64,000 nt of DNA from a virus (lineage: Duplodnaviria > Caudoviricetes), in the IMG/VR virus record IMGVR_UViG_3300012979_000034, positions 18,405 to 82,404 of that record. One strand, 5' to 3'. Every line of letters begins with the position of its first letter. Within the stretch, counting starts at the first letter, position 1. The translations under genes and the position numbers were made by a program. Under the pieces are notes generated by a model. That model saw nothing but the letters and a program-made list of their open reading frames with translations. It searched no databases and was not told where the DNA came from. Shown in pieces: positions 3,705-63,368 of the stretch.

Positions 3705-4690
3705 GTTTCAGCTTTATTTAGTAAACTTATTAATAAGTTTTTCTTGTCTTTATCTTTCATACCAATTTTCTTCATATAGCGTCTTGCTAGAGTTCTTTTA
3801 GAAAGTTGTTTAGTAATATTATGTTCATTTGTATTACTAATACTAGCTTTCTTAGGTAATACCGTATAATAATTACCATCCTCTATTATATCACTCTCAT
3901 TTTCTACATCAATGAATTTAGGGAAATCCTTTAAGGGTAAAAATTTCATATCTAGGTTATCATATAATAACCATACCCCTAATTCACAATCTCTATCTGT
4001 TCTCCTTTGTTGTAATGGAGCACCTATCATATAAACCTTTTTAGATAACCTTTGGGGTTTATGTATATGACCACATAATACTAAATCGAACCTATTTAAA
4101 ATATTCAAATTTAGGTTTTCAACTGAATCTATAACCCTACCATCAGTATCCTTAGCTCCCGGGTAATCAGTATGTAACATTAAAATATGTTTATAATCAG
4201 GGTCTAATTCCAATTTAGACAAATATTCATTTAAACCTATATTATGGTCTATGTAAGGTACTCCATGAATAACTACTGAAGATTCTGTTAACTTAAAACT
4301 TACATTATCTATATTATATACCCATCTATACCTATTTGATAAGTATGTAATTAAGCTATATTTAGGGTTATTTATTGTATTTACCTCTTTTAATTCATGA
4401 TTACCAGATATAGCTAATAATTCAAAGCTATTACCATCATAAAAATTAGCTTCATCGTCATACTTAGCAAATTCATTATCCATAAGATGAAGTAATTCAA
4501 TACTTATACCATCAGGCTTATGAAAGAAATCACCACAAAACAGAGAAATACAATGATGTTTATTACATAAATCTCTAACGAACGAAAGGACCCTAAAATG
4601 GTTCAAGGTCCTTTCGTTATTCTTATTAAACTTAGCCCAGATGTTTAAATGTAAATCAGAAAAAACAACAGCTAATACTTTTTTACTCAT
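3698..4690 (-). CDS. sbcD: SbcD/Mre11/gp47-like metallophosphoesterase nuclease
   Basis: SDLH, GDFFH, GNHE and GHIH motifs; adjacent to sbcC. Confidence 0.9.
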   Translation of the reverse strand: MSKKVLAVVFSDLHLNIWAKFNKNNERTLNHFRVLSFVRDLCNKHHCISLFCGDFFHKPDGISIELLHLMDNEFAKYDDEANFYDGNSFELLAISGNHELKEVNTINNPKYSLITYLSNRYRWVYNIDNVSFKLTESSVVIHGVPYIDHNIGLNEYLSKLELDPDYKHILMLHTDYPGAKDTDGRVIDSVENLNLNILNRFDLVLCGHIHKPQRLSKKVYMIGAPLQQRRTDRDCELGVWLLYDNLDMKFLPLKDFPKFIDVENESDIIEDGNYYTVLPKKASISNTNEHNITKQLSKRTLARRYMKKIGMKDKDKKNLLISLLNKAETC

Positions 4691-5385
4691 AGTTTTAATT
4701 GATACTTTAGAATCAACTCCCTTTCATTTAAACCAAGAGAAGAAATGGTTAATACATCAGTATGACCATATATATTCTCTATAAAACCGTATTCTACACT
4801 GTCTGTTAATTCAACAAATCTATATAAACCCTTTGGAATACGTTCATAACTACCAACACGTTGATAACCCATAATACCAAGAGCAACCTTCATAATACCT
4901 GATATCTCAGCTTGAAAATAGTTGTTAGTTATCCTTTTATGATTATCTTCAGTAAGCCATTGATCTATATAACCTGGTTTAAAATCAAACATTACTAACA
5001 AATCACATTGTTGAACCAGTATCATAGAGCATAATCTAGAGAATTGGTCTAATTCACATGAAGGTTGTTTACCTGCTTGCTTATAAATAAAATAGGTCAA
5101 ACTATCAAGGTAACTACGGTCAGAAACAAATATTGGATGTTCTCTGAACAATTTACGTCTTAGATCCAATATCTGATAATCCTCTAAATATTGGGTTTTA
5201 GAATCCCTATCTAACATATCTCTGTGAGAAAGCTCTTTTGTAGAGGGTATTAAATCTGATACAGAACCAGATATAAATTCATAACCCAATGCCTGATACT
5301 CATCGGCTAACCATTTAGCTATGGTAGTTTTACCAATACCAGATGGACCGGCCATCATAATTCTTTGATACTTAAGGTTTTTCAT
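4687..5385 (-). CDS. P-loop nucleotide-kinase-like protein (AAA_28/dNMP kinase-like)
   Basis: GPSGIGKTT Walker A and FVSDRSYLD motif typical of the NMP-kinase fold. Confidence 0.65.
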   Translation of the reverse strand: MKNLKYQRIMMAGPSGIGKTTIAKWLADEYQALGYEFISGSVSDLIPSTKELSHRDMLDRDSKTQYLEDYQILDLRRKLFREHPIFVSDRSYLDSLTYFIYKQAGKQPSCELDQFSRLCSMILVQQCDLLVMFDFKPGYIDQWLTEDNHKRITNNYFQAEISGIMKVALGIMGYQRVGSYERIPKGLYRFVELTDSVEYGFIENIYGHTDVLTISSLGLNERELILKYQLKL

Positions 5386-10149: not shown

Positions 10150-10368
10150 TTATAAAAAACTTTCAGTAACTAACCTATCTGAGGTGGTTGTTTTCACAGA
10201 ATTATTATGAAGTATTAGATTACCACATTTAGGGCAACTTACATAAATAGAATTACTACCATCTCTTAAATTTACATTAACGCAATCCTCATATTGATAT
10301 TCAAATTCTGTATCACATACCTGACATTTAGCAATGAATACCGATGGACCTTTTAAAATCTTCTTCAT
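10150..10368 (-). CDS. Small zinc-ribbon protein
   Basis: CQVC...CPKC. Confidence 0.6.
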   Translation of the reverse strand: MKKILKGPSVFIAKCQVCDTEFEYQYEDCVNVNLRDGSNSIYVSCPKCGNLILHNNSVKTTTSDRLVTESFL

Positions 10369-12619
10369 ACTCTTTCATCTCTTTAGAAAAATACTTAGGA
10401 TAATCTTTAATACTTATATGTTTATATTTCTTAGCCAGTTCCATATATTCATCAACATTGAAATCAGGCTTTAACATATTATTATAATCATACAATGGTA
10501 TAAATGGTAATTCTTCTGCCATAGTTCTACCTATTTCATAATCCATATCCATTGTAACATCATCTATCTGAAAACCAAAAAATTTCTTAGTTCTTGGGTT
10601 TCTATAGATATTCCACATCGTATATATGGTCCATACATTAATAAATTCAGGCTTACTGTTAAAATAGTTAGCATCATGTACTAAGCAAACTGAATCCATT
10701 TTTGGTAACTTACCTTGCCTCATCATATAATATATTAATATTGAGCCAAATAAACACATATCTGATGCAGCTGATTGACAAGGGAAATTTAAACCCAATC
10801 TTATAGCATAAGCTACCTCATCACTATTGTTTGAATATATTTGTGGTAATCTTCTTTTTCTACCAAACAAAGATTTAAGATAACCGTTTTTCCTTAAATA
10901 CTTTTCCTGTTTTTCCTTAAATACCTTTAATTTAGGATGCTCTTCAAAGTACTCATCCATTTGTTTTTGAGCTTCTTCTTTAGAAACTATTAAACCTGCT
11001 TTTGGATCTGATAATTTTACAGCTAGTAAAGCAGCACCAATACCATAAATCAAACCAAACGCTAATTGTTTAGCTTGTTTTCTTCTAGTTTTCCATAGTT
11101 TAAAATCAGGATGTTTTTCATCTTCATAGATCTTAAGAGTTTCATTATAATCTACTCCATATTTTTTACAAGCAATAGCTAAATGAGGATCTTGACCTTC
11201 TGCAAAAGCTTTCAGATATGTTTCATCTCCAGATAGGTGAGCCATTATTCTCAATTCAGCTTGGGAAAAATCTGAAGCAAAATATAAAGTTCCTGGTTTA
11301 GCTACTAATTGATTTTTTATATTAGGGTCAACTGAAGTCTTTGGTATCTGTTGTATATTTGGTTCTTGTGAACTTAATCTGCCAGATGTAGTACCATGTA
11401 TTAATAATCTACCATGTAAACAATTATCATCCTGTACTTTTTCATTCCAACCTAAAATATAAGTTTTATACATTTTTTCCAAACCTCTTAATTCCATAAG
11501 CTTATCTAAAAATATAGCTTTCGGATTATCAGGTTTCTTTACTGTTAATCTTAATTCAACCAAAGTATCCTCAGACGTTGAGGGTTTACCTGATTCAGTT
11601 TTATTTATGGGTTCAAAACCTAAACCATGTTCTCCATACATTAGTAGAGGTAAATCATTATTACTATTTAGGTTGATAGGAGCAATTAATGCTTGCTCAT
11701 TTTTAGTAATATATATTCCGGCACGGATATTAGCAATTTTATTCTGCCTACTAGTGATTTTTCTCTTATCTGCTGGATTATTTATATCTAAAGAATCTAA
11801 TTCTTCTTGTATTTTACTTATATATGCCTCTATCCTAGATTGGTTTAAATACTTTTGAAACTTTTTTACTTTTGGTAGATTCATTACCGTATTACGAGCA
11901 TCATCTATCTTCGGTTTATAAGTATTGAGTAGTTCCTCATTAAAACCCCTATTTAAATATAAACCAGATTTCTCTACTGAAGTTAATACCCTTGAAGCAG
12001 TCATTATCAGGTTTCTATAAGTATCATACAAACCTAGTGTAATTAACTTATTTTCAAAGAAAATACTTAATCTAAAGGTATAATCAGTATCTTGACAGCC
12101 ATATTTACATAGAGGTTCTAATGGTTTTTCATCCCATGGTATTTTATCAAAGGCATCTTGCTTTTCATAATTACCATGTTCCGGTAAATACCTTTTGACC
12201 ATATCTTTTAGTCCATTCGGTTTCTCCTCATTTAGTAAATACTTAGCTAACATACCATCTATAAGTACACCTCTATAGAATATACCATACTTCTCCATTA
12301 TCTGATTATCAAACTTAGCATTCCAGGCTATCTTAGTAATATTCCTATTACAAATAACCTGTTCACCAAAATACTTAAGTTCTTTTAACCAATCCCAACC
12401 TGGTTCAGTATAATCTTTAGTTTCTGGGTGATCTAAGGGTATAGAACAACCCATACCAGGTTGAAATGTTACTGATAAGATTGTTGGTTTAAAATCCCTA
12501 TTATAAATTGGTTTAGCATTAGTTTCAAAATCATATGAAGCATATCCAGTTATTTTACAGGCTCTTACAAGTCGTTTCAGTTCTGAATGAGAACGAATAA
12601 TGTGATATTTTGTCTCCAT
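10328..12619 (-). CDS. polA: DNA polymerase family A with 3'-5' exonuclease
   Basis: Exo DFET; TTSGRLSSQEPNIQQIP; motif A SDFSQAELR; motif B RKQAKQLAFGLIYG; motif C VHDA. Confidence 0.95.
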   Translation of the reverse strand: METKYHIIRSHSELKRLVRACKITGYASYDFETNAKPIYNRDFKPTILSVTFQPGMGCSIPLDHPETKDYTEPGWDWLKELKYFGEQVICNRNITKIAWNAKFDNQIMEKYGIFYRGVLIDGMLAKYLLNEEKPNGLKDMVKRYLPEHGNYEKQDAFDKIPWDEKPLEPLCKYGCQDTDYTFRLSIFFENKLITLGLYDTYRNLIMTASRVLTSVEKSGLYLNRGFNEELLNTYKPKIDDARNTVMNLPKVKKFQKYLNQSRIEAYISKIQEELDSLDINNPADKRKITSRQNKIANIRAGIYITKNEQALIAPINLNSNNDLPLLMYGEHGLGFEPINKTESGKPSTSEDTLVELRLTVKKPDNPKAIFLDKLMELRGLEKMYKTYILGWNEKVQDDNCLHGRLLIHGTTSGRLSSQEPNIQQIPKTSVDPNIKNQLVAKPGTLYFASDFSQAELRIMAHLSGDETYLKAFAEGQDPHLAIACKKYGVDYNETLKIYEDEKHPDFKLWKTRRKQAKQLAFGLIYGIGAALLAVKLSDPKAGLIVSKEEAQKQMDEYFEEHPKLKVFKEKQEKYLRKNGYLKSLFGRKRRLPQIYSNNSDEVAYAIRLGLNFPCQSAASDMCLFGSILIYYMMRQGKLPKMDSVCLVHDANYFNSKPEFINVWTIYTMWNIYRNPRTKKFFGFQIDDVTMDMDYEIGRTMAEELPFIPLYDYNNMLKPDFNVDEYMELAKKYKHISIKDYPKYFSKEMKEYEEDFKRSIGIHC

Positions 12620-12686: not shown

Positions 12687-13463
12687 TTAAACTAAGTCGT
12701 CAATGTTAGAATTTAGATAATGCCAATCTTTTTTATAAGCATGTAGAGAATCAATTGTATGATATAAATAGCCAGGTTTTATATTAATTTCCCTAGCAAT
12801 ATATTCCATAAGTCTCCAAGCTAAATATACATCATCTCCAAAGTGCATACAAAAATCTGAGCTCCTTTGGTGATATACTATGTTCAATTGTTTCTCACCT
12901 CTAGCATTCCATCTGATTAGAAAATCATAATACATTGAACAAGGTATACGATGTTCTCCAGCATAATAATCACTATCAAAATCATGAGGACCAATACCAT
13001 ATATACTTAAAACAGCCTTACGAGTACCTGGGTCAGTCTTTAGCAATTGTATAATAGCTTCCAACTTAGTCATCCTAGTACCATTAAATAATACTGGTTG
13101 ATTAATACGTTCACAGTATGTATAATCAAAATGACGGTCATTGGTACCTACCAAAAATTGTTCCCACATATCTTCACGTAACTTCCAAGCTTCGCCAGGA
13201 TTATTGTATGTTTCATCTGGATCAATTCTCTCCAGGAATTCAGCATCAGCCCATTCTTTAGCCTTTGTATATACAAATAGGTAATCTACATTTTTAAGTG
13301 AAGTTAAACAATACTGTTGACATATTATTTCTTTTGTAATAAAGTCATCAATACCTTCTATCACCTTATTCTGGTAAGTCTTTGGTTTTACTACTTGACC
13401 ATAGCTATTGAGTTCTCTGCCCATCTCAGACATTAAATCTCTACAATCTGAATAAATTCTCAT
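12687..13463 (-). CDS. ThyA-fold enzyme, probable dCMP hydroxymethyl/methyltransferase
   Basis: EFLER Glu, TRKAV, catalytic RIPC, QRSSDFCMHFGDD (Asp at the E. coli TS Asn177 position), DSLHAY. Confidence 0.75.
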   Translation of the reverse strand: MRIYSDCRDLMSEMGRELNSYGQVVKPKTYQNKVIEGIDDFITKEIICQQYCLTSLKNVDYLFVYTKAKEWADAEFLERIDPDETYNNPGEAWKLREDMWEQFLVGTNDRHFDYTYCERINQPVLFNGTRMTKLEAIIQLLKTDPGTRKAVLSIYGIGPHDFDSDYYAGEHRIPCSMYYDFLIRWNARGEKQLNIVYHQRSSDFCMHFGDDVYLAWRLMEYIAREINIKPGYLYHTIDSLHAYKKDWHYLNSNIDDLV

Positions 13464-13464
13464 G

Positions 13465-14379
13465 TTACTCTTCTTTATGCTTTAAACTATTTTTATGTTT
13501 TTTCTTATACAACTTACGCTGTGAAAAAGAGATACAATCCTCTGGATATTCTATATCTTCATATTCTAATAGTAAATCCCTAGCATATAAGGGTTTATAA
13601 GTATATAGATCAGGTCTAAGTACTTTAAAACTCCTAAAGAATACCTTGAAAGATGAGAATTGTTTTTCTGTACCATTTTGAAACTTATTGAATACTTCCC
13701 ATACTTTATCAGTAAATGGGTTTTGTACACCCTTTAATACTTTCTTGAGAGGTTTATAAGTGTGATACATCATCAGGGTTTCTATATTACCATACATTTG
13801 AGTAGCAAATACATTTACCTGAATAGATTGTTCTGGTCCATATACATATTCAGACATCCTTTGAATTAATAAGAAATCAAATATTAACCTCTTAGTTATT
13901 TCCGATGCCCTCATTATCATAGTAACAACAGGAGTATCTTCCTGGAACCTTTTTGAGAAAGTAGCAGCTATTAAACACTGCTTACCATTATCGTGGTGGT
14001 TATTGAAAGTATAAGTTATGTTGTAATTTTGATTATACTTGTTCTTTAATACTCTAAGCTTAGAACGTAGTAAATCCAGTTTGTTAAAATCAATATAATT
14101 GTTTAACAGGGAAGTCCATTTAGCTTCTGTATAATTAAACATTCTACCATAATCAAAATCAGGATCAACCCAAGCCTTCCTTATCTTTATAAATACATTG
14201 TATGATACAGCTACTCCACTATTAGCTGTAGCTCCAGCTTTAAATAATATTGGGTCTATTCTCAGAAAGGATTCATTTAACTTTTCCCAAGCTTCTTGTG
14301 AAGTTGCGAACTCTAAAGCATGTATATTCTCTTCTGTATTAGTTTCTAGACCCTTTAAAGGTTTATTCCATCCAGACAT
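13465..14379 (-). CDS. Second, divergent ThyA-fold protein
   Basis: GKQCL Cys and MRASEITKRLIFD motif (Asp at the specificity position); the C-terminal HxY motif is degenerate. Confidence 0.6.
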   Translation of the reverse strand: MSGWNKPLKGLETNTEENIHALEFATSQEAWEKLNESFLRIDPILFKAGATANSGVAVSYNVFIKIRKAWVDPDFDYGRMFNYTEAKWTSLLNNYIDFNKLDLLRSKLRVLKNKYNQNYNITYTFNNHHDNGKQCLIAATFSKRFQEDTPVVTMIMRASEITKRLIFDFLLIQRMSEYVYGPEQSIQVNVFATQMYGNIETLMMYHTYKPLKKVLKGVQNPFTDKVWEVFNKFQNGTEKQFSSFKVFFRSFKVLRPDLYTYKPLYARDLLLEYEDIEYPEDCISFSQRKLYKKKHKNSLKHKEE

Positions 14380-15258
14380 TTAATAACCAGTTTTTTGTCT
14401 CCATAAGTTGAGACGTTGTTTTTTAAACATTAATACATATATACTCTCTTGATCAAAACCATTAAGACCCAAGTAACCAAGATATAATAGGAAAGCTTTT
14501 ACTACAGCTTCCTGGTAATCAAGTTCTTTTGACATTACCTGTGTTTGCTTCCATGGACGATTCTTAAGCAAATTCCTAGCACAATTCAATTGATAGATTA
14601 CCTGCCACATTAAATATATACCATTGTTAATACGGGAAGGTGATAATGAATGAAACCCGGGAGCATATTGCTTGAATTTATCAAAATCGTTCTGAGTTTT
14701 ATTGAACTTACCAGTAAAGATATCTGAACTTACTAACGGGAAACTAAGATGAAGCAAACTATCATATACATCAAAACCACAGTCATTTTGAAGCTTTATA
14801 CCAAATGACATCAAATCATTGGTTGAATTTATATCTATACCACCATTAGAATCTGCATAATTAAAAATATCTTCTGGCAATATATTAGAGTATGTTAGAA
14901 GAGCAAAGAAGAATCCAAAAGCATCTGCTTGTTCTTCATTTGCATTTTGAATATGATTTAATACTTGATTATATTCTTTGTTATTGAGCTTATATATGTT
15001 ATAACCAATAGGATTTAAAATCTCATTCAATAGTAAAAGGGACTCATGACCCTCGGTTAACTCTTCTATTATTCTACCTATAAAATCCTTTAGTATAACC
15101 TGATTCTTGGCAGTATTTATATCAAAAGGGTAAGCTGGTAGATTTTCTATAATACGATAACCCTCTAGCTGTTCTATACCCAAATCAAACATCTTTGACA
15201 GATACTCTTTTGGGTCAGATACCTCTAGAGGGTTTTCTGTAATATTTCTAATATCCAT
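14380..15258 (-). CDS. All-alpha dNTP pyrophosphatase (dimeric dUTPase / T4 gp56 dCTPase-like)
   Basis: EELTE, EEQAD, KNRPWK and C-terminal KKQRLNLWRQKTGY. Confidence 0.7.
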   Translation of the reverse strand: MDIRNITENPLEVSDPKEYLSKMFDLGIEQLEGYRIIENLPAYPFDINTAKNQVILKDFIGRIIEELTEGHESLLLLNEILNPIGYNIYKLNNKEYNQVLNHIQNANEEQADAFGFFFALLTYSNILPEDIFNYADSNGGIDINSTNDLMSFGIKLQNDCGFDVYDSLLHLSFPLVSSDIFTGKFNKTQNDFDKFKQYAPGFHSLSPSRINNGIYLMWQVIYQLNCARNLLKNRPWKQTQVMSKELDYQEAVVKAFLLYLGYLGLNGFDQESIYVLMFKKQRLNLWRQKTGY

Positions 15259-15821
15259 TAGTCACCAGAACCAAGTCCATTACTACCTCTGGTACCCCAA
15301 GTAGTAGCCAGATCTTCATATTCTTCTACTGATATCTCTTCCAGTGGTGTAATATAAATAGGTACATGAATAAACTGTAAAATAGAACCAACTTCAACAA
15401 CCTGAGTAGTACTACTAGTATTACAAATACCCAAATGAATTTCACCGGTATAAGGAGAATCAACAATCTCTGCAGTATATACTAAACCCTTTTTATAGGA
15501 TTTACCAGATTTATTTGCAGCCATTAGCATTGAATTTTCAGGCTCTATTAAAACTCTGATACCTGATGGAATCAATACACGTGAATGAGGTCCCAAGATT
15601 ATACTGGTTATATATCCGGTACTGTGATTTATTACTGTTCTAACTATACCAACTCCAGTTATATCTGGGCTGATCACAATATCTTCAGCTTGAGCATTAG
15701 CTGTACGGATATTTTCAATAGTTAAATTACTTGGAATCTTAAAATCCAAACCTGCATCTCCATGATTTGCATAAGAAGGTACTTCAACTTCCCTTACCTT
15801 ACAAAAGCGAATACGATTCAT
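15258..15821 (-). CDS. dut: Trimeric dUTPase
   Basis: AGLDF, KSGKS, IVDSPYTGEI and RGSNGLGS motifs. Confidence 0.85.
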   Translation of the reverse strand: MNRIRFCKVREVEVPSYANHGDAGLDFKIPSNLTIENIRTANAQAEDIVISPDITGVGIVRTVINHSTGYITSIILGPHSRVLIPSGIRVLIEPENSMLMAANKSGKSYKKGLVYTAEIVDSPYTGEIHLGICNTSSTTQVVEVGSILQFIHVPIYITPLEEISVEEYEDLATTWGTRGSNGLGSGD

Positions 15822-46504: not shown

Positions 46505-47443
46505 TTACCATTGCCTAAATGTTACTGTACTACCCTTTTCTCCTTTAGGACCTTGGATGCCTTGTTCTCCTTGTGGACCCTGAATACCTTGGATTCCTTG
46601 AGATCCAGTGTCTCCTTTAGGTCCTTGAGGTCCGGTGTCTCCGGTATCTCCCTTCGGTCCTTGAGATCCCGTGTCTCCCTTGTCTCCCTTGTCTCCTTTG
46701 GAGCCCTTAGTTCCATTCTTCACCTGGAATGTAGACTGCGTTCCATTAGTCAGGGTCACAGTGACGATATTGTTGCCTCCGTCGGCAGTAGAGGTTGTCG
46801 TCTGCTCTACGGATGTTATGCCAGTACCATCATCTCCTGGGTCTCCCTTCGAACCTTGCAAACCAGTTTCTCCTTGAGGTCCTACTGGTCCTTGTTCTCC
46901 TTGTGGACCGGTATCACCCTTGTCACCTTTTTCTCCAGTTTCACCCTTTTCACCACGCAGCACTGGTGATGTATAAGTAGTACCATCAGTCAAGGTGATG
47001 GTCATGGTATAATCCGGATTGTAGACTATATTCTCAATACCTACACCATCCTCACCACGAACTCCAGTAGAAAGGTTTATTGTAATATCGTTAACCTCAG
47101 TATCAAGACCCTCAGGATCCTGACCACCCTCCATAGAAGTATCTGGAACTAAACGAAAGGCATCTTTTACATCTACTACAGTCTGACCATGCTTACCAAA
47201 ATTTTCCCAAACAGTTATCTTATATATACCAAGTACCTTTTGATCTATTCCCCAAAACATGAACTCAAGGGTATTTACATCGGTAACTGTAAAAGGCATG
47301 TCTATAGCATGACACCTATTATCAATAAGATGCACCCTTAGATCACGCCCTGCTAATGGCCTGGGCTCTTTATTAGTAAGTACATGAAGCCTGTTAGTTA
47401 TATCCTTACCTTTTCTATATCTCTTAATATCAATAATATCCAT
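46505..47443 (-). CDS. Collagen-like fibre protein with BppU-like N-terminal domain
   Basis: Two Gly-X-Y runs after a beta-rich N-terminal domain. Confidence 0.75.
   Translation of the reverse strand: MDIIDIKRYRKGKDITNRLHVLTNKEPRPLAGRDLRVHLIDNRCHAIDMPFTVTDVNTLEFMFWGIDQKVLGIYKITVWENFGKHGQTVVDVKDAFRLVPDTSMEGGQDPEGLDTEVNDITINLSTGVRGEDGVGIENIVYNPDYTMTITLTDGTTYTSPVLRGEKGETGEKGDKGDTGPQGEQGPVGPQGETGLQGSKGDPGDDGTGITSVEQTTTSTADGGNNIVTVTLTNGTQSTFQVKNGTKGSKGDKGDKGDTGSQGPKGDTGDTGPQGPKGDTGSQGIQGIQGPQGEQGIQGPKGEKGSTVTFRQW
46526..46954 (-). repeat. Collagen Gly-X-Y repeats, two blocks (about 15 and 21 triplets)
   Basis: GEKGETGEKGDK... and GTKGSKGDKGDK... read directly. Confidence 0.95.
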
Positions 47444-50314: not shown

Positions 50315-51190
50315 TTATATTATAGATGGTTTAGGCTTGTTTACCAAAGATCCAGGATTAGGTCCACTTATATGTCCAGGCAACCTTCTTAAATCCATTT
50401 GTGGTACATAAGGGTTTTTAACCTGGTCACATATTGGTAACCAAATATCTAATCTTTGGGCAAGCATACATAGGTTAGCTTTAATCCTATCTATAAGACC
50501 ACCATCACTTAAAGCCTGTGATAAAGCTTTGTATAGTGAACTTACACTATCAGTTAAAGTATCATAATACTGTACCTCAGTAGGACCAGTAGTAATTTGT
50601 TTCAAATGTCCAACTACACCTTCACCTTCACCGGATGAAGAGCTAGAAGAGCTTTCACTAGTAATTTTAGATAAAGCTGCCGAAGTAGAAGTTAACATTT
50701 GTGACAGTTCTATATGTAGATAATCCCACACTGCCAATTCCATTACCAGCTGGTTTTCTAGTGCTTCATAATATAACTCATTAGAATATTCTTCTAGAGG
50801 TACTTCATGATTTACTAGAGGTTGGATATATAACTGCCATTTATTAATATAAACCTTCTTATCGGAATACTTCATAGTAGTATTTAATTCTGAAGGTATA
50901 TAATAATCTATAAGGTTATATATACTGTCTGGTAATGAGGTAGAAACGTGATCAGATACCAATAAAGTATGTACAATATTTACTACATCCTCATCTTTAG
51001 AGGCTTTTAGGGTAACCGTATATATACCAGAAGTTTCATATACATGTTTTGGATTAGTCTTATCATTATCAGAAACTGTATCTGTATAATCACCAAAGTC
51101 CCAGACAAGTGTGGTACCTGCTGGGACTTTGTTTACTATCCTAAATGAAACCTCTAGGCCTTGTACGGTATAGACAAAGTCCAGATCCAT
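50315..51190 (-). CDS. PKD-domain head-tail adaptor
   Basis: LVWDFGD...NPKHVYETSGIYTVTL PKD signature followed by a helical adaptor-like domain. Confidence 0.7.
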   Translation of the reverse strand: MDLDFVYTVQGLEVSFRIVNKVPAGTTLVWDFGDYTDTVSDNDKTNPKHVYETSGIYTVTLKASKDEDVVNIVHTLLVSDHVSTSLPDSIYNLIDYYIPSELNTTMKYSDKKVYINKWQLYIQPLVNHEVPLEEYSNELYYEALENQLVMELAVWDYLHIELSQMLTSTSAALSKITSESSSSSSSGEGEGVVGHLKQITTGPTEVQYYDTLTDSVSSLYKALSQALSDGGLIDRIKANLCMLAQRLDIWLPICDQVKNPYVPQMDLRRLPGHISGPNPGSLVNKPKPSII

Positions 51191-58599: not shown

Positions 58600-59607
58600 T
58601 TAACTGTTAACTTTTTGGATTTTCCTTAAACACTTTTTAAACCATATACCTACTTCTCCAACAGCCCCCTTAGCTATCGTATATCTAGCTTTATTCAACC
58701 AGTATAGATATTGACTTTCATCCATGTATATCTTAAATTTTTTGGAAAATCCCATTATTTCTAGATAATCCTCTATACCTAATGGCCATCCATCTGGTCT
58801 AAATTGTCTATCTGCAGGTCTTAGGGTTAATGGTGGTCTATTACCCTCTAACCTATATACTCCTGGCAAGGTTTGCATTTTAGCTGTTTTGATAGGCCAC
58901 TTCTTTTCATGTTTAAAATCCTTTACCCACAGATCTCTTATCTTTTTAACTGTTAATGTAGTTTTATCAGGGAGTTTACGATAATCATACATAGCTAGTG
59001 TTTTATCCAAAGGAGGCATAAAATTCTTACCAAAAGCTGGTTTTAATAAATCACTAGTGATTTTTAAATCATGTACTTGAAATTTCCTATCAAAAGCTTT
59101 AAGATACTCTGGTGCTTTAGTTAAATGTACCCCTATTATCATCAATCTTTTCCTTGAAAGTTGTGAATTACCAAACTCTGCTACTGATGAAGTATGATAT
59201 ACTAGCTTATAATCTGAAAATGTGTTCTCAAAAAACTTTTCTGGCATCAGTGACAGTAGTTTTGGTAGGTTTTCAAGTAAAAATATACCAGGTTTGTACA
59301 TCATTATAGCTTCAAACACCAGATTTAGACTCTTATTTTCCTCTGGATTACCCAAAATTTTCACTTTTGACAGTCTCATAGTACTAGAAGCTCCACAATC
59401 TGGTGAACTAAGTATGATATCTGGTTCCCAATTTGGGTCTAAACCACCCTTTAAGAACGGTACATCACCAAAATTTAGCTTCCACTGCTCTTCATTAGCC
59501 GTATGAAACACTGCTCTTGGTTCAACATTAGCTATTAAATTCTTCCTAAACGGAAATAATAGAGCTCCTTGCCCTGCTGATACACCCAAAACTTTCATCT
59601 TTTTCAT
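58600..59607 (-). CDS. Divergent DNA cytosine-C5 methyltransferase homologue
   Basis: Motif I SAGQG, IV SPDCG, VI ENL, VIII QLSRKR, X AKGAV. Confidence 0.7.
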   Translation of the reverse strand: MKKMKVLGVSAGQGALLFPFRKNLIANVEPRAVFHTANEEQWKLNFGDVPFLKGGLDPNWEPDIILSSPDCGASSTMRLSKVKILGNPEENKSLNLVFEAIMMYKPGIFLLENLPKLLSLMPEKFFENTFSDYKLVYHTSSVAEFGNSQLSRKRLMIIGVHLTKAPEYLKAFDRKFQVHDLKITSDLLKPAFGKNFMPPLDKTLAMYDYRKLPDKTTLTVKKIRDLWVKDFKHEKKWPIKTAKMQTLPGVYRLEGNRPPLTLRPADRQFRPDGWPLGIEDYLEIMGFSKKFKIYMDESQYLYWLNKARYTIAKGAVGEVGIWFKKCLRKIQKVNS

Positions 59608-62459: not shown

Positions 62460-63368
62460 ATGAAAGTAGTACATTCAAGTTTTGAGATTTGGGGTTCAGA
62501 CCATTATGATCTTATTTCCCAATATAGACACATAGAAAGAGTCGGCAGAGTATGTTATAAGTCCGAGGATAAAATTACGGATATCTCATATGAGGGCTTT
62601 ATTTCTCGACTTAAAAAATCACAGCATTATGCAATGCTGGAGCACGGAACTTTATATTTAAAAATGTCTTTTGATTTACCGCTAGTAGATTTCTTCTTGT
62701 ATAATAAATATTCTCATGTAAATGATAACTATGATAAATCTAGAAAACACTGGGCATATATTACCACTAACCTGAGGGTATGTATTGAAAATAACCTGGA
62801 TATGGATAAGCTCAAGTGGTATATGGTAAACCCATCTGAATACCATGAGAAGAGGGTTACTGTACACTTTATTTGTGATAGAGGAGTAAGTCATGAGTTT
62901 GTTCGTCACAGGGTATTCTCCTTTGCCCAGGAATCCACTAGGTACTGCAATTACCAAAAGGGGAAATTTAATTCTGAAATTACCTATATTGTACCTACCT
63001 GGTTGCATTCCTATGTTCCTGAAGGTACTGTAGAGTTTAAGAACCCGGGATATATGATCAAGAGAGGTAATTATATTGGTCCCTGGGTTACTGAACATGA
63101 TAGGGAAGTAGAGTTCTTTAAAGCTCTAGAAGCTTGTGAGGATTCTTACCTTAAGATGATAGGTATGGGATGTTTACCTCAAGAGGCTAGGCAGGTTTTA
63201 CCAAATGCCTTGAAGACTGAATTGGTGATGACTGGGTTTATTAAGGACTGGAAACACTTCTTTGATTTGAGGGCTTTGGGTACTACTGGTAAACCTCATC
63301 CTGATGCTAGGGCTTTGGCTTTACCTTTATATAAGACCTTTGAAGAGAGGGGTTTAATTAAAGTATGA
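62460..63368 (+). CDS. thyX: Flavin-dependent thymidylate synthase
   Basis: RGVSHEFVRHR-x5-QESTRY signature; QEARQVLP and WKHFFDLR motifs. Confidence 0.93.
   Translation: MKVVHSSFEIWGSDHYDLISQYRHIERVGRVCYKSEDKITDISYEGFISRLKKSQHYAMLEHGTLYLKMSFDLPLVDFFLYNKYSHVNDNYDKSRKHWAYITTNLRVCIENNLDMDKLKWYMVNPSEYHEKRVTVHFICDRGVSHEFVRHRVFSFAQESTRYCNYQKGKFNSEITYIVPTWLHSYVPEGTVEFKNPGYMIKRGNYIGPWVTEHDREVEFFKALEACEDSYLKMIGMGCLPQEARQVLPNALKTELVMTGFIKDWKHFFDLRALGTTGKPHPDARALALPLYKTFEERGLIKV

Follow-up and report, generated by a model that had tools for sequence, protein, structure and literature searches.

Two thymidylate synthase-fold proteins in a conserved gut-phage gene cassette with a predicted role in cytosine modification

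A compact gene cassette beside the family-A DNA polymerase gene polA of a gut phage probably encodes a pre-replicative pathway in the style of phage T4, in which cytosine would be swapped for a modified cytosine by enzyme branches lying outside the characterised ones. The stretch of DNA analysed (the window, 64,000 nucleotides) comprises bases 18405-82404 of the 82,404-bp viral record IMGVR_UViG_3300012979_000034, which has direct terminal repeats and is rated complete. In transcription order the cassette consists of the dUTPase gene dut, the gene of a 292-residue all-alpha nucleoside triphosphate (NTP) pyrophosphohydrolase, two genes whose 304- and 258-residue products adopt the thymidylate synthase (TS) fold, and polA. 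A first-pass annotation made from the sequence had proposed a cytosine-modification pathway on the basis of this gene order, and the open reading frame (ORF) coordinates match it exactly, all on the minus strand (Table 1). The logic of such a pathway is already known from T4 and from the MetaGPA study of modified phage contigs; what is new here is a clade of enzymes whose residue signature none of the published rules covers, together with an obligate second TS-fold family.

The 258-residue enzyme scores above the curated PF00303 cut-off for the TS superfamily (Table 1). Alignment by MAFFT with E. coli ThyA, T4 gp42 and other references from public records, and by hhalign to canonical TS (97.7%), places Cys175 at the catalytic Cys146 of E. 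coli ThyA, whose numbering is used below for positions 143, 147, 169, 173, 177 and the like. By the same alignments Arg172 corresponds to position 143, Ser176 to 147, Arg200, Ser201 and Asp203 to 166, 167 and 169, His207 to 173, Asp211 to Asn177, and His241 and Tyr243 to His207 and Tyr209; R148 and K149 are kept. The motifs quoted for this enzyme in the first-pass annotation, RIPC (Cys175), RSSDFCMHFGDD and DSLHAY, are present as described, and the strings given there for T4 gp42 (RSNDVVFGFRND and GSLHVY) agree with the T4 record. The dCMP-type Asp was also borne out, with Asp211 aligned to N177, and position 147 likewise carries a non-His residue, Ser176.

These two positions are informative, as MetaGPA found 177 and 147 to be the ones that best tell apart TS homologs encoded on phage contigs with and without modified cytosine (PMC8670742), and N177D has been equated with specificity for deoxycytidine monophosphate (dCMP) (Lee et al. 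2026, PMC13326640). Because the enzyme combines Asp177 with Ser147, a cytosine nucleotide is its likely substrate, and its residues mark it as a predicted dCMP C5-modifying enzyme. Conservation was counted in 80 related IMG/VR loci (L021-L100), and the pairing of Asp177 with a non-His residue at 147, which speaks for cytosine modification, is found both here and in all 80. Equally invariant across these loci are the motifs containing the catalytic Cys146, R166-S167-x-D169 and H207-x-Y209, all present in the 258-residue enzyme; the motifs RIPCS and RSSDF..HFG[ND]D; and the full clade signature of R143, S/T147, D169, H173 and D177.

A closer assignment, to the gp42 type, did not hold. Position 143 is Arg rather than Asp or Glu, position 173 is His rather than Gly, and in a maximum-likelihood tree the window enzyme falls in a clade of its own (support 89/81) that separates from seven characterised enzymes. 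The comparison suggested earlier, with ThyA, T4 gp42, the dCMP methylase of Xp12 and the SPO1 enzyme, thus sets it apart from every one of them; the clade stands apart from T4 gp42, RB69 gp48, Xp12, SPO1, PhiW-14 and true TS, and gp42 lies on the other side together with the remaining characterised enzymes. At positions 143/147/169/173/177 the window clade reads R/(S or T)/D/H/D, T4 gp42 D/T/D/G/D, RB69 gp48 E/T/N/V/D, Xp12 N/P/D/G/D, and SPO1 and PhiW-14 D/N/D/G/N. Like T4 gp42 and RB69 gp48, the window enzyme ends 15 residues past the HxY motif and does not have the C-terminal lid of true TS. Its AlphaFold2 (AF2) model (predicted local distance difference test, pLDDT, 88.9) matches MilA in Foldseek (2.6e-12, TMq 0.72) and AfhB (9iqc/9iqu, TMt 0.76-0.77), and AfhB is also its best PDB sequence match (9iqu/9iqc, E 4e-7). 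A dUMP-directed pathway leading to hydroxymethyluracil was ruled out, as residue 177 is Asp in every member of the clade and Asn in SPO1 and PhiW-14.

With regard to the product, positions 143 and 173 are both no more than 6 A away from C5 in the E. coli enzyme, an Asp or Glu at 143 accompanies hydroxymethyl products, the acidic residue admitting water, and D169N marks the flavin-dependent 5-hydroxy-dCMP synthases (all PMC13326640). A hydroxymethyl group is the most probable substituent, as the likeliest guess only; three features of the enzyme favour it: Asp169 and Trp80, which contact the folate, are retained, there is no C-terminal lid of the kind that hydride transfer needs, and residue 143 is polar. 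A methyl product is less likely, a hydroxyl product is disfavoured by Asp169, and a product other than these three is possible.

The second TS-fold protein, of 304 residues, is clearly TS-like in its model and dissimilar in sequence. The earlier description of two ThyA-fold genes therefore stood with respect to fold and not with respect to sequence families, since none of 53 family members matches PF00303 at E<=1. A PDB profile search with the family retrieved, by sequence, no TS and only spurious centrin matches. The AF2 model (pLDDT 91.9, predicted template modelling score 0.89) gave significant PDB matches in Foldseek that were all TS-fold, led by MilA, AfhB and T4 dCH, and in VIA-align it scored Z 14.2 to AfhB (9iqu; 178 residues aligned at 3.5 A), with lower values for MilA (Z 13.3) and classical TS (about 10); language-model features agree with the assignment. 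Both TS-fold models thus find their closest structural counterparts (MilA, AfhB, T4 dCH) among cytosine-specific enzymes, in keeping with the proposed pathway. Hhalign between the 304- and 258-residue families is weak (E 1e-3, 21%), and it pairs Cys135 with C146, Arg157-Ala-Ser-Glu with R166-D169, and Asp168 with N177. Thymidine hypermodification through an aGPT-Pplase was considered for the 304-residue protein and dropped, there being no such Pfam match and the fold being that of TS.

An exhaustive search recovered 141 clusters of this family at 50% identity. Lys87, Trp88, Lys133, Cys135, Arg157, Arg164, Asp168, Arg174 and Arg249 are invariant in the 53-member alignment, where Cys135 occupies the position of C146, Arg157 that of R166, Arg164 position 173 and Asp168 that of N177; Glu160, at D169, is nearly invariant and is Asp in a few copies. 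The motifs GK.CL and R.S[ED]...RL..D occur in 109/109 copies of the 304-residue type of protein. Not retained are the R126/R127 pair (NQNY stands there, before strand 119-124, according to the model secondary structure and the 53-member alignment), the Pro before the Cys, and His207. Longer members (322-483 residues) were checked for informative fused domains and none was found. Because dense conserved basic and acidic residues are kept, the protein is judged to be an enzyme rather than a decayed copy, and its sequence conservation indicates a separate, probably catalytic family. It might instead be a non-catalytic subunit that heterodimerises with the 258-residue enzyme and donates or receives active-site residues, an arrangement that would suit the loss of R126/R127 and His207 beside a partner that keeps R148/K149, as well as the constant adjacency of the two genes. 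We regard this as rather unlikely, since the residue set listed above (Trp88 aside, with Glu160 added), maintained across the 53 members and 109 copies, is typical of a working pocket, and the two different paralog copies present in 29/80 relatives would be odd for a simple partner subunit.

In public databases the family is largely unnamed. The nearest relatives of the 304-residue protein in BFVD are labelled uncharacterised, among them a protein of Pseudomonas phage PMBT14. A homolog is annotated as 'pyrimidine hmase synthase' in two GenBank records (L103 and H201/H202; Yersinia phage vB_YenM_P744, MW202455), which shows that some annotation pipelines recognise the TS-like nature of the family; elsewhere the homolog is a 'hypothetical protein', and the record of the Clostridium perfringens phage CPAS-15 wrongly calls it a colanic acid glycosyltransferase.

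The 292-residue protein can reasonably be placed, by sequence comparison, in the dUTPase_2 family to which T4 gp56 belongs. In hhalign its comparison with the CPAS-15 enzyme, which is of the dUTPase_2 type, reaches 99.2%; the acidic residues of its metal-binding motifs EExxE (EELTE, 65-69) and EExxD (EEQAD, 108-112) are invariant in 14/14 family members, as is a KxxPWKQ motif; and a RQxxGY-type tail is common to this protein, the CPAS-15 enzyme and T4 gp56. Its relatives in the metagenomic contigs L018 and L019 carry PF08761. The earlier description as a gp56-like pyrophosphatase is retained for the family, and specificity for deoxycytidine triphosphate (dCTP) is deduced from the genes around it, dUTP being already dealt with by a Dut of its own; the protein is therefore best described as a predicted dCTPase.

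Dut itself was recognised as a trimeric dUTPase directly in the cassette, as claimed (Table 1), and by eye its sequence shows AGLD, VDSPYTGE and RGSNGLGSG. It is predicted to remove dUTP and thereby supply dUMP to ThyX, the flavin-dependent thymidylate synthase whose separate gene was found as stated at the far end of the window. Given a separate Dut and ThyX, the TS-fold pair has no needed role in dTMP synthesis. For the deoxynucleoside monophosphate (dNMP) kinase step that the first-pass annotation had assumed, a P-loop protein (Table 1) offers a candidate, and PolA is the predicted user of the modified triphosphate.

The arrangement of the cassette is not due to chance, because the order dut, pyrophosphatase, paralog, TS-like gene, polA is constant in 80/80 IMG/VR loci and is broken only by HNH homing endonucleases. 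The 304-residue type of paralog is present in one copy in 51 of these loci and in two in the other 29. In the very common group of human-gut phages that has the cassette, more than 1,200 protein clusters are related to the 258-residue enzyme, and complete contigs of about 85 kb carry many of them. The core order pyrophosphatase-paralog-TS, usually with a P-loop kinase before it and PolA a few genes downstream, recurs in phages of four host phyla: C. perfringens phage CPAS-15, Gordonia phage SweatNTears, Serratia phage Opt-155, Brevundimonas phage Polewnik and Mycobacterium phage Muddy (gp49-gp44), as well as in L018 and L019. A dCMP deaminase gene sometimes lies between the TS-like gene and PolA in these cassettes. 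In each carrier the 304-residue family profile detects an adjoining 'hypothetical' protein, weakly in Gordonia and Muddy, and the TS enzymes all show R143, S/T147, D169, H173 and D177; every proteobacterial phage found through the Serratia paralog also has an R143-type TS. Literature searches turned up no relevant data on modified DNA in phages of the CPAS-15 group, PMBT14, Serbin, Muddy or the Gordonia phages.

Some features of the relatives concern the architecture of the locus. Two tandem diverged paralog copies precede a single TS-like gene at L019:2235-4044 and in the two-copy IMG/VR loci, with the motifs GKGCL/RSSE..TRLP.D and GKNCL/RASEVTKRLICD. HNH/NUMOD homing endonucleases occur at several points of the cassette in L021-L100, and some relatives have a polA gene broken up by insertions, for example at L037:11441-12421 (DUF559 domain).

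In the proposed pathway, the trimeric Dut would clear dUTP and feed ThyX, and the gp56-family pyrophosphatase would turn dCTP into dCMP, depleting the normal polymerase substrate. Cys175 of the 258-residue enzyme would then attack C6 of dCMP, with Asp211 reading cytosine N3/N4, and a C5 substituent would be added, most likely a hydroxymethyl group from methylene-tetrahydrofolate. The 304-residue protein, through Cys135 and Asp168, would act on the same cytosine nucleotide, either in a second chemical step or as a partner subunit. Finally, the P-loop kinase and a host nucleoside diphosphate (NDP) kinase would form the triphosphate for incorporation by PolA. The co-occurrence of TS, all-alpha pyrophosphohydrolase and dCMP deaminase specifically on modified contigs in MetaGPA (PMC8670742) provides a precedent for such gene sets. 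The modified-cytosine interpretation first offered for this DNA is thus partly supported: Asp177, the gp56-family enzyme and the presence of Dut and ThyX count in its favour, whereas assignment to the gp42 type is not supported and dCTP specificity is only predicted.

Several observations weigh against this pathway or against individual steps of it. Across the whole genome, GATC is the most avoided 4-bp palindrome (162 occurrences versus 274 expected, observed/expected 0.59, z -6.8), which suggests that GATC-directed restriction still selects on the genome. The late region also contains a divergent C5 DNA-methyltransferase-like gene (Table 1), whose product has SPDC in place of the PC motif, retains ENL and QLSRKR, and is atypical in motif I. 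Under complete replacement such an enzyme would be left without a substrate, because every cytosine would already be C5-substituted. Together, the GATC avoidance and the methyltransferase-like gene fit badly with, and argue against, complete bulky cytosine replacement; they suggest that some ordinary cytosine, or a small modification that permits cleavage, is present in the phage DNA. With respect to the individual enzymes, the pyrophosphatase falls under the Pfam cut-off (PF08761, 16.6 bits against 22.9), and its hhalign match to T4 gp56 (51%, E 1.5e-4) is confined to the C-terminus, spanning only the last 55 residues. The candidate kinase is only P-loop-similar to the cassette kinases of CPAS-15 and L018, so that its assignment is weak. 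The R143/H173 signature of the 258-residue enzyme matches none of the published product rules, and the C5 substituent therefore cannot be read from them (PMC13326640). In addition, the 304-residue protein is affected by the loss of its arginine pair. In TS the active site is completed across the dimer by R126'/R127', and with this pair absent the protein may bind no mononucleotide in the classical way.

Two further observations on these subjects stand on their own. The whole genome has no CCTAGG site (6.3 expected) and just 2 of ATGCAT (10.3 expected), and the C5-methyltransferase-like gene overlaps the start of the muramidase gene.

The same features bear on a doubtful alternative, in which the cassette would only reshape nucleotide pools and leave no modified base in virion DNA, for example through a dCMP-first thymidylate route or by making a nucleotide for another purpose such as counter-defence. 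GATC avoidance and the methyltransferase-like gene suggest ordinary cytosine in the DNA, and the related phages assemble readily from standard metagenomes as complete contigs of about 82-88 kb. However, a phage with its own ThyX and Dut has no need of a second thymidylate route, there is no dCMP deaminase to convert methylated dCMP, and the close linkage to PolA and to an enzyme of the dCTPase family, seen in phages far apart, is typical of base replacement in DNA. The dCMP-first thymidylate route in particular was ruled out, a dCMP deaminase gene having been looked for in the phage and not found, and ThyX being present.

It is quite unlikely that the 258-residue enzyme is instead a dCMP methyltransferase of the Xp12 type, giving DNA with 5-methylcytosine and leaving the paralog an accessory role. 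Asp177 would be expected of such an enzyme, Asp169 and Gln165 are kept as in true TS, and 5-methylcytosine leaves many restriction enzymes active, which is compatible with GATC avoidance. A Pfam scan of 50 ORFs found neither a glycosyltransferase nor any other group-transferase, which is consistent both with this alternative and with the earlier remark that no glycosyltransferase is visible in the window. On the other hand, the Xp12 enzyme groups with canonical TS (E. coli ThyA, RB69 Td) rather than with the window clade and reaches 138 bits against PF00303, compared with 52.7 for the window enzyme. It has a long C-terminal region and an adjoining dihydrofolate reductase (DHFR) gene, whereas the window enzyme ends shortly after HxY and a DHFR gene, which was looked for, is lacking from the phage; Asn143/Gly173 of Xp12 also contrast with Arg143/His173. 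The weakest alternative, in which 5-hydroxycytosine would be made by one of the TS-fold enzymes, or by both, acting as a flavin-dependent dCMP 5-hydroxylase like AfhB and RB69 gp48, is very unlikely, for although AfhB is the best PDB sequence match of the 258-residue enzyme, the top VIA-align match of the 304-residue model and by TMt the joint top match of the 258-residue model, and the short C-terminus is common to all, Asn169 occurs in every verified 5-hydroxy-dCMP synthase (PMC13326640) while the 258-residue clade has Asp169 in 80/80 loci and the paralog Glu or Asp, and no arabinosyltransferase, glycosyltransferase or NDP-sugar genes were found in the phage.

Returning to cytosine replacement, a more far-reaching version of it is offered tentatively, as a minority possibility: both TS-fold enzymes together might make a C5-substituted deoxycytidine other than methyl, hydroxymethyl or hydroxyl, to which the IspD and LicD proteins of some relatives would add a phospho-alcohol on DNA. 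Either the Arg143/His173 enzyme would use a different electrophile, or the paralog Cys would re-activate 5-hydroxymethyl-dCMP and exchange its hydroxyl at the nucleotide level; in the relatives with IspD and LicD, the base would be further decorated on DNA with a phospho-alcohol from a CDP-activated donor. If such a base exists, abundant human-gut phages and the therapeutic phage Muddy carry an undescribed DNA base.

The ispD and licD genes lie immediately behind the TS-like gene and ahead of polA in seven of the 80 related phages (L037, L029, L030, L033, L034, L036 and L062), all of which fall in the subgroup with two paralog copies. At L037:8154-9774 they encode an IspD-family cytidylyltransferase (PF01128, 2e-26) and a LicD-family phosphotransferase (PF04991, 1e-38). 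A matching ispD/licD insertion in the 'Flandersviridae' has been interpreted as a cell-wall modification (Benler et al. 2021, PMC8008677). The position of the genes beside base-modifying genes might point instead to DNA decoration of a hydroxyl-bearing base.

Among known systems, the hydroxymethylcytosine pathway of T4 (gp56 dCTPase/dUTPase, gp42 dCMP hydroxymethylase, gp1 dNMP kinase) is alike in its all-alpha pyrophosphatase family, its short-C-terminus TS-fold enzyme with Cys146 and Asp177, its kinase and its linkage to replisome genes. T4 gp42 nevertheless belongs to a different clade and has Asp143/Gly173 in place of Arg143/His173, T4 has no second TS-fold enzyme, and the window phage adds a separate trimeric Dut and ThyX. 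The polymerase of T4 is of family B and that of the window phage of family A, and no glucosyltransferase was found in the latter. AfhB of E. coli phage HY126, RB69 gp48 and DLP3 gp80, which are 5-hydroxy-dCMP synthases, share Asp177 and the short C-terminus, and the AfhB group (PDB 9iqu, 9iqc) provides the closest solved structures for both window TS-fold proteins. Its diagnostic Asn169 is absent here, being Asp in the 258-residue enzyme and Glu in the paralog, and sugar-transfer genes are likewise missing.

The dCMP methyltransferase of Xp12 resembles the window enzyme as a TS homolog with Asp177 beside a family-A polymerase region. It differs in being canonical-TS-like with a long C-terminus, in Asn143 and Gly173, and in its adjoining DHFR and dCMP deaminase genes, and its cassette contains neither a second TS-fold gene nor a dUTPase_2 gene. 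MilA (PDB 5jnh, 5b6d), which hydroxymethylates CMP in the biosynthesis of mildiomycin, heads the Foldseek matches of both models and is cytosine-specific with Asp177. It differs in belonging to a bacterial antibiotic pathway, in taking a ribonucleotide, CMP, as its substrate and in having Asp143, and its identity is only 11-17%. The modified-contig neighbourhoods of MetaGPA (Yang et al. 2021, PMC8670742) share the 147/177 signature and the co-occurring all-alpha pyrophosphohydrolase, but that study describes no second TS-fold family or R143/H173 clade, and the downstream enzyme characterised there, a carbamoyltransferase, is absent in the window phage.

Whether a given restriction or CRISPR system can cut a phage depends on base replacement in its DNA, which also bears on sequencing and cloning and has yielded epigenetics tools. 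The cassette is carried by this very common group of phages of the human gut and by cultured phages of four host phyla, the therapeutic Muddy among them. Naming its product would assign a role to a widespread protein family whose entries in UniProt and most of GenBank still read 'uncharacterised' or 'hypothetical'.

Table 1. Features of the window discussed in the text (positions are those of the window)
Feature	Position	Strand	Evidence
Dut, trimeric dUTPase (187 aa)	15258-15821	-	PF00692 1.3e-9, 38.4 bits (cut-off 22); phrog_135 6.6e-16
All-alpha NTP pyrophosphohydrolase (292 aa), dUTPase_2/T4 gp56 family, large insertions	14380-15258	-	phrog_12184 4.1e-16
Second TS-fold protein (304 aa)	13465-14379	-	no Pfam match; phrog_34294 (function unknown); AF2 fold
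TS-fold enzyme (258 aa), predicted dCMP C5 modifier	12687-13463	-	PF00303 52.7 bits (cut-off 24.3); phrog_160 2.6e-24
PolA, family-A DNA polymerase with 3'-5' exonuclease domain	10328-12619	-	PF00476 2.8e-66; PF01612 7.6e-19
P-loop protein (232 aa), candidate dNMP kinase	4687-5385	-	PF13521 AAA_28 3.5e-8; phrog_2107 'thymidylate kinase' 9.1e-8
ThyX, flavin-dependent thymidylate synthase	62460-63368	+	PF02511 1.3e-29, 103.8 bits (cut-off 24.8)
Divergent C5 DNA-methyltransferase-like protein	58600-59607	-	PF00145 4e-8
Collagen triple-helix repeat protein	46505-47443	-	PF01391 8.5e-17
PKD-domain protein	50315-51190	-	PF18911 2.4e-9

The GC content of the window is about 30-38%, and nearly all genes lie on the minus strand. 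The replication module around the cassette contains SbcCD-like nuclease genes, the P-loop protein, a 5'-3' exonuclease, RecA/UvsX and a gp32-like protein, and continues with PolA, the cassette, a helicase, a primase and a DnaB-like helicase. Sequence matches to baseplate J and T4-baseplate proteins fit a contractile-tail phage. The virion module also encodes the collagen-repeat and PKD-domain proteins listed in Table 1, which are probably fibre or decoration proteins.

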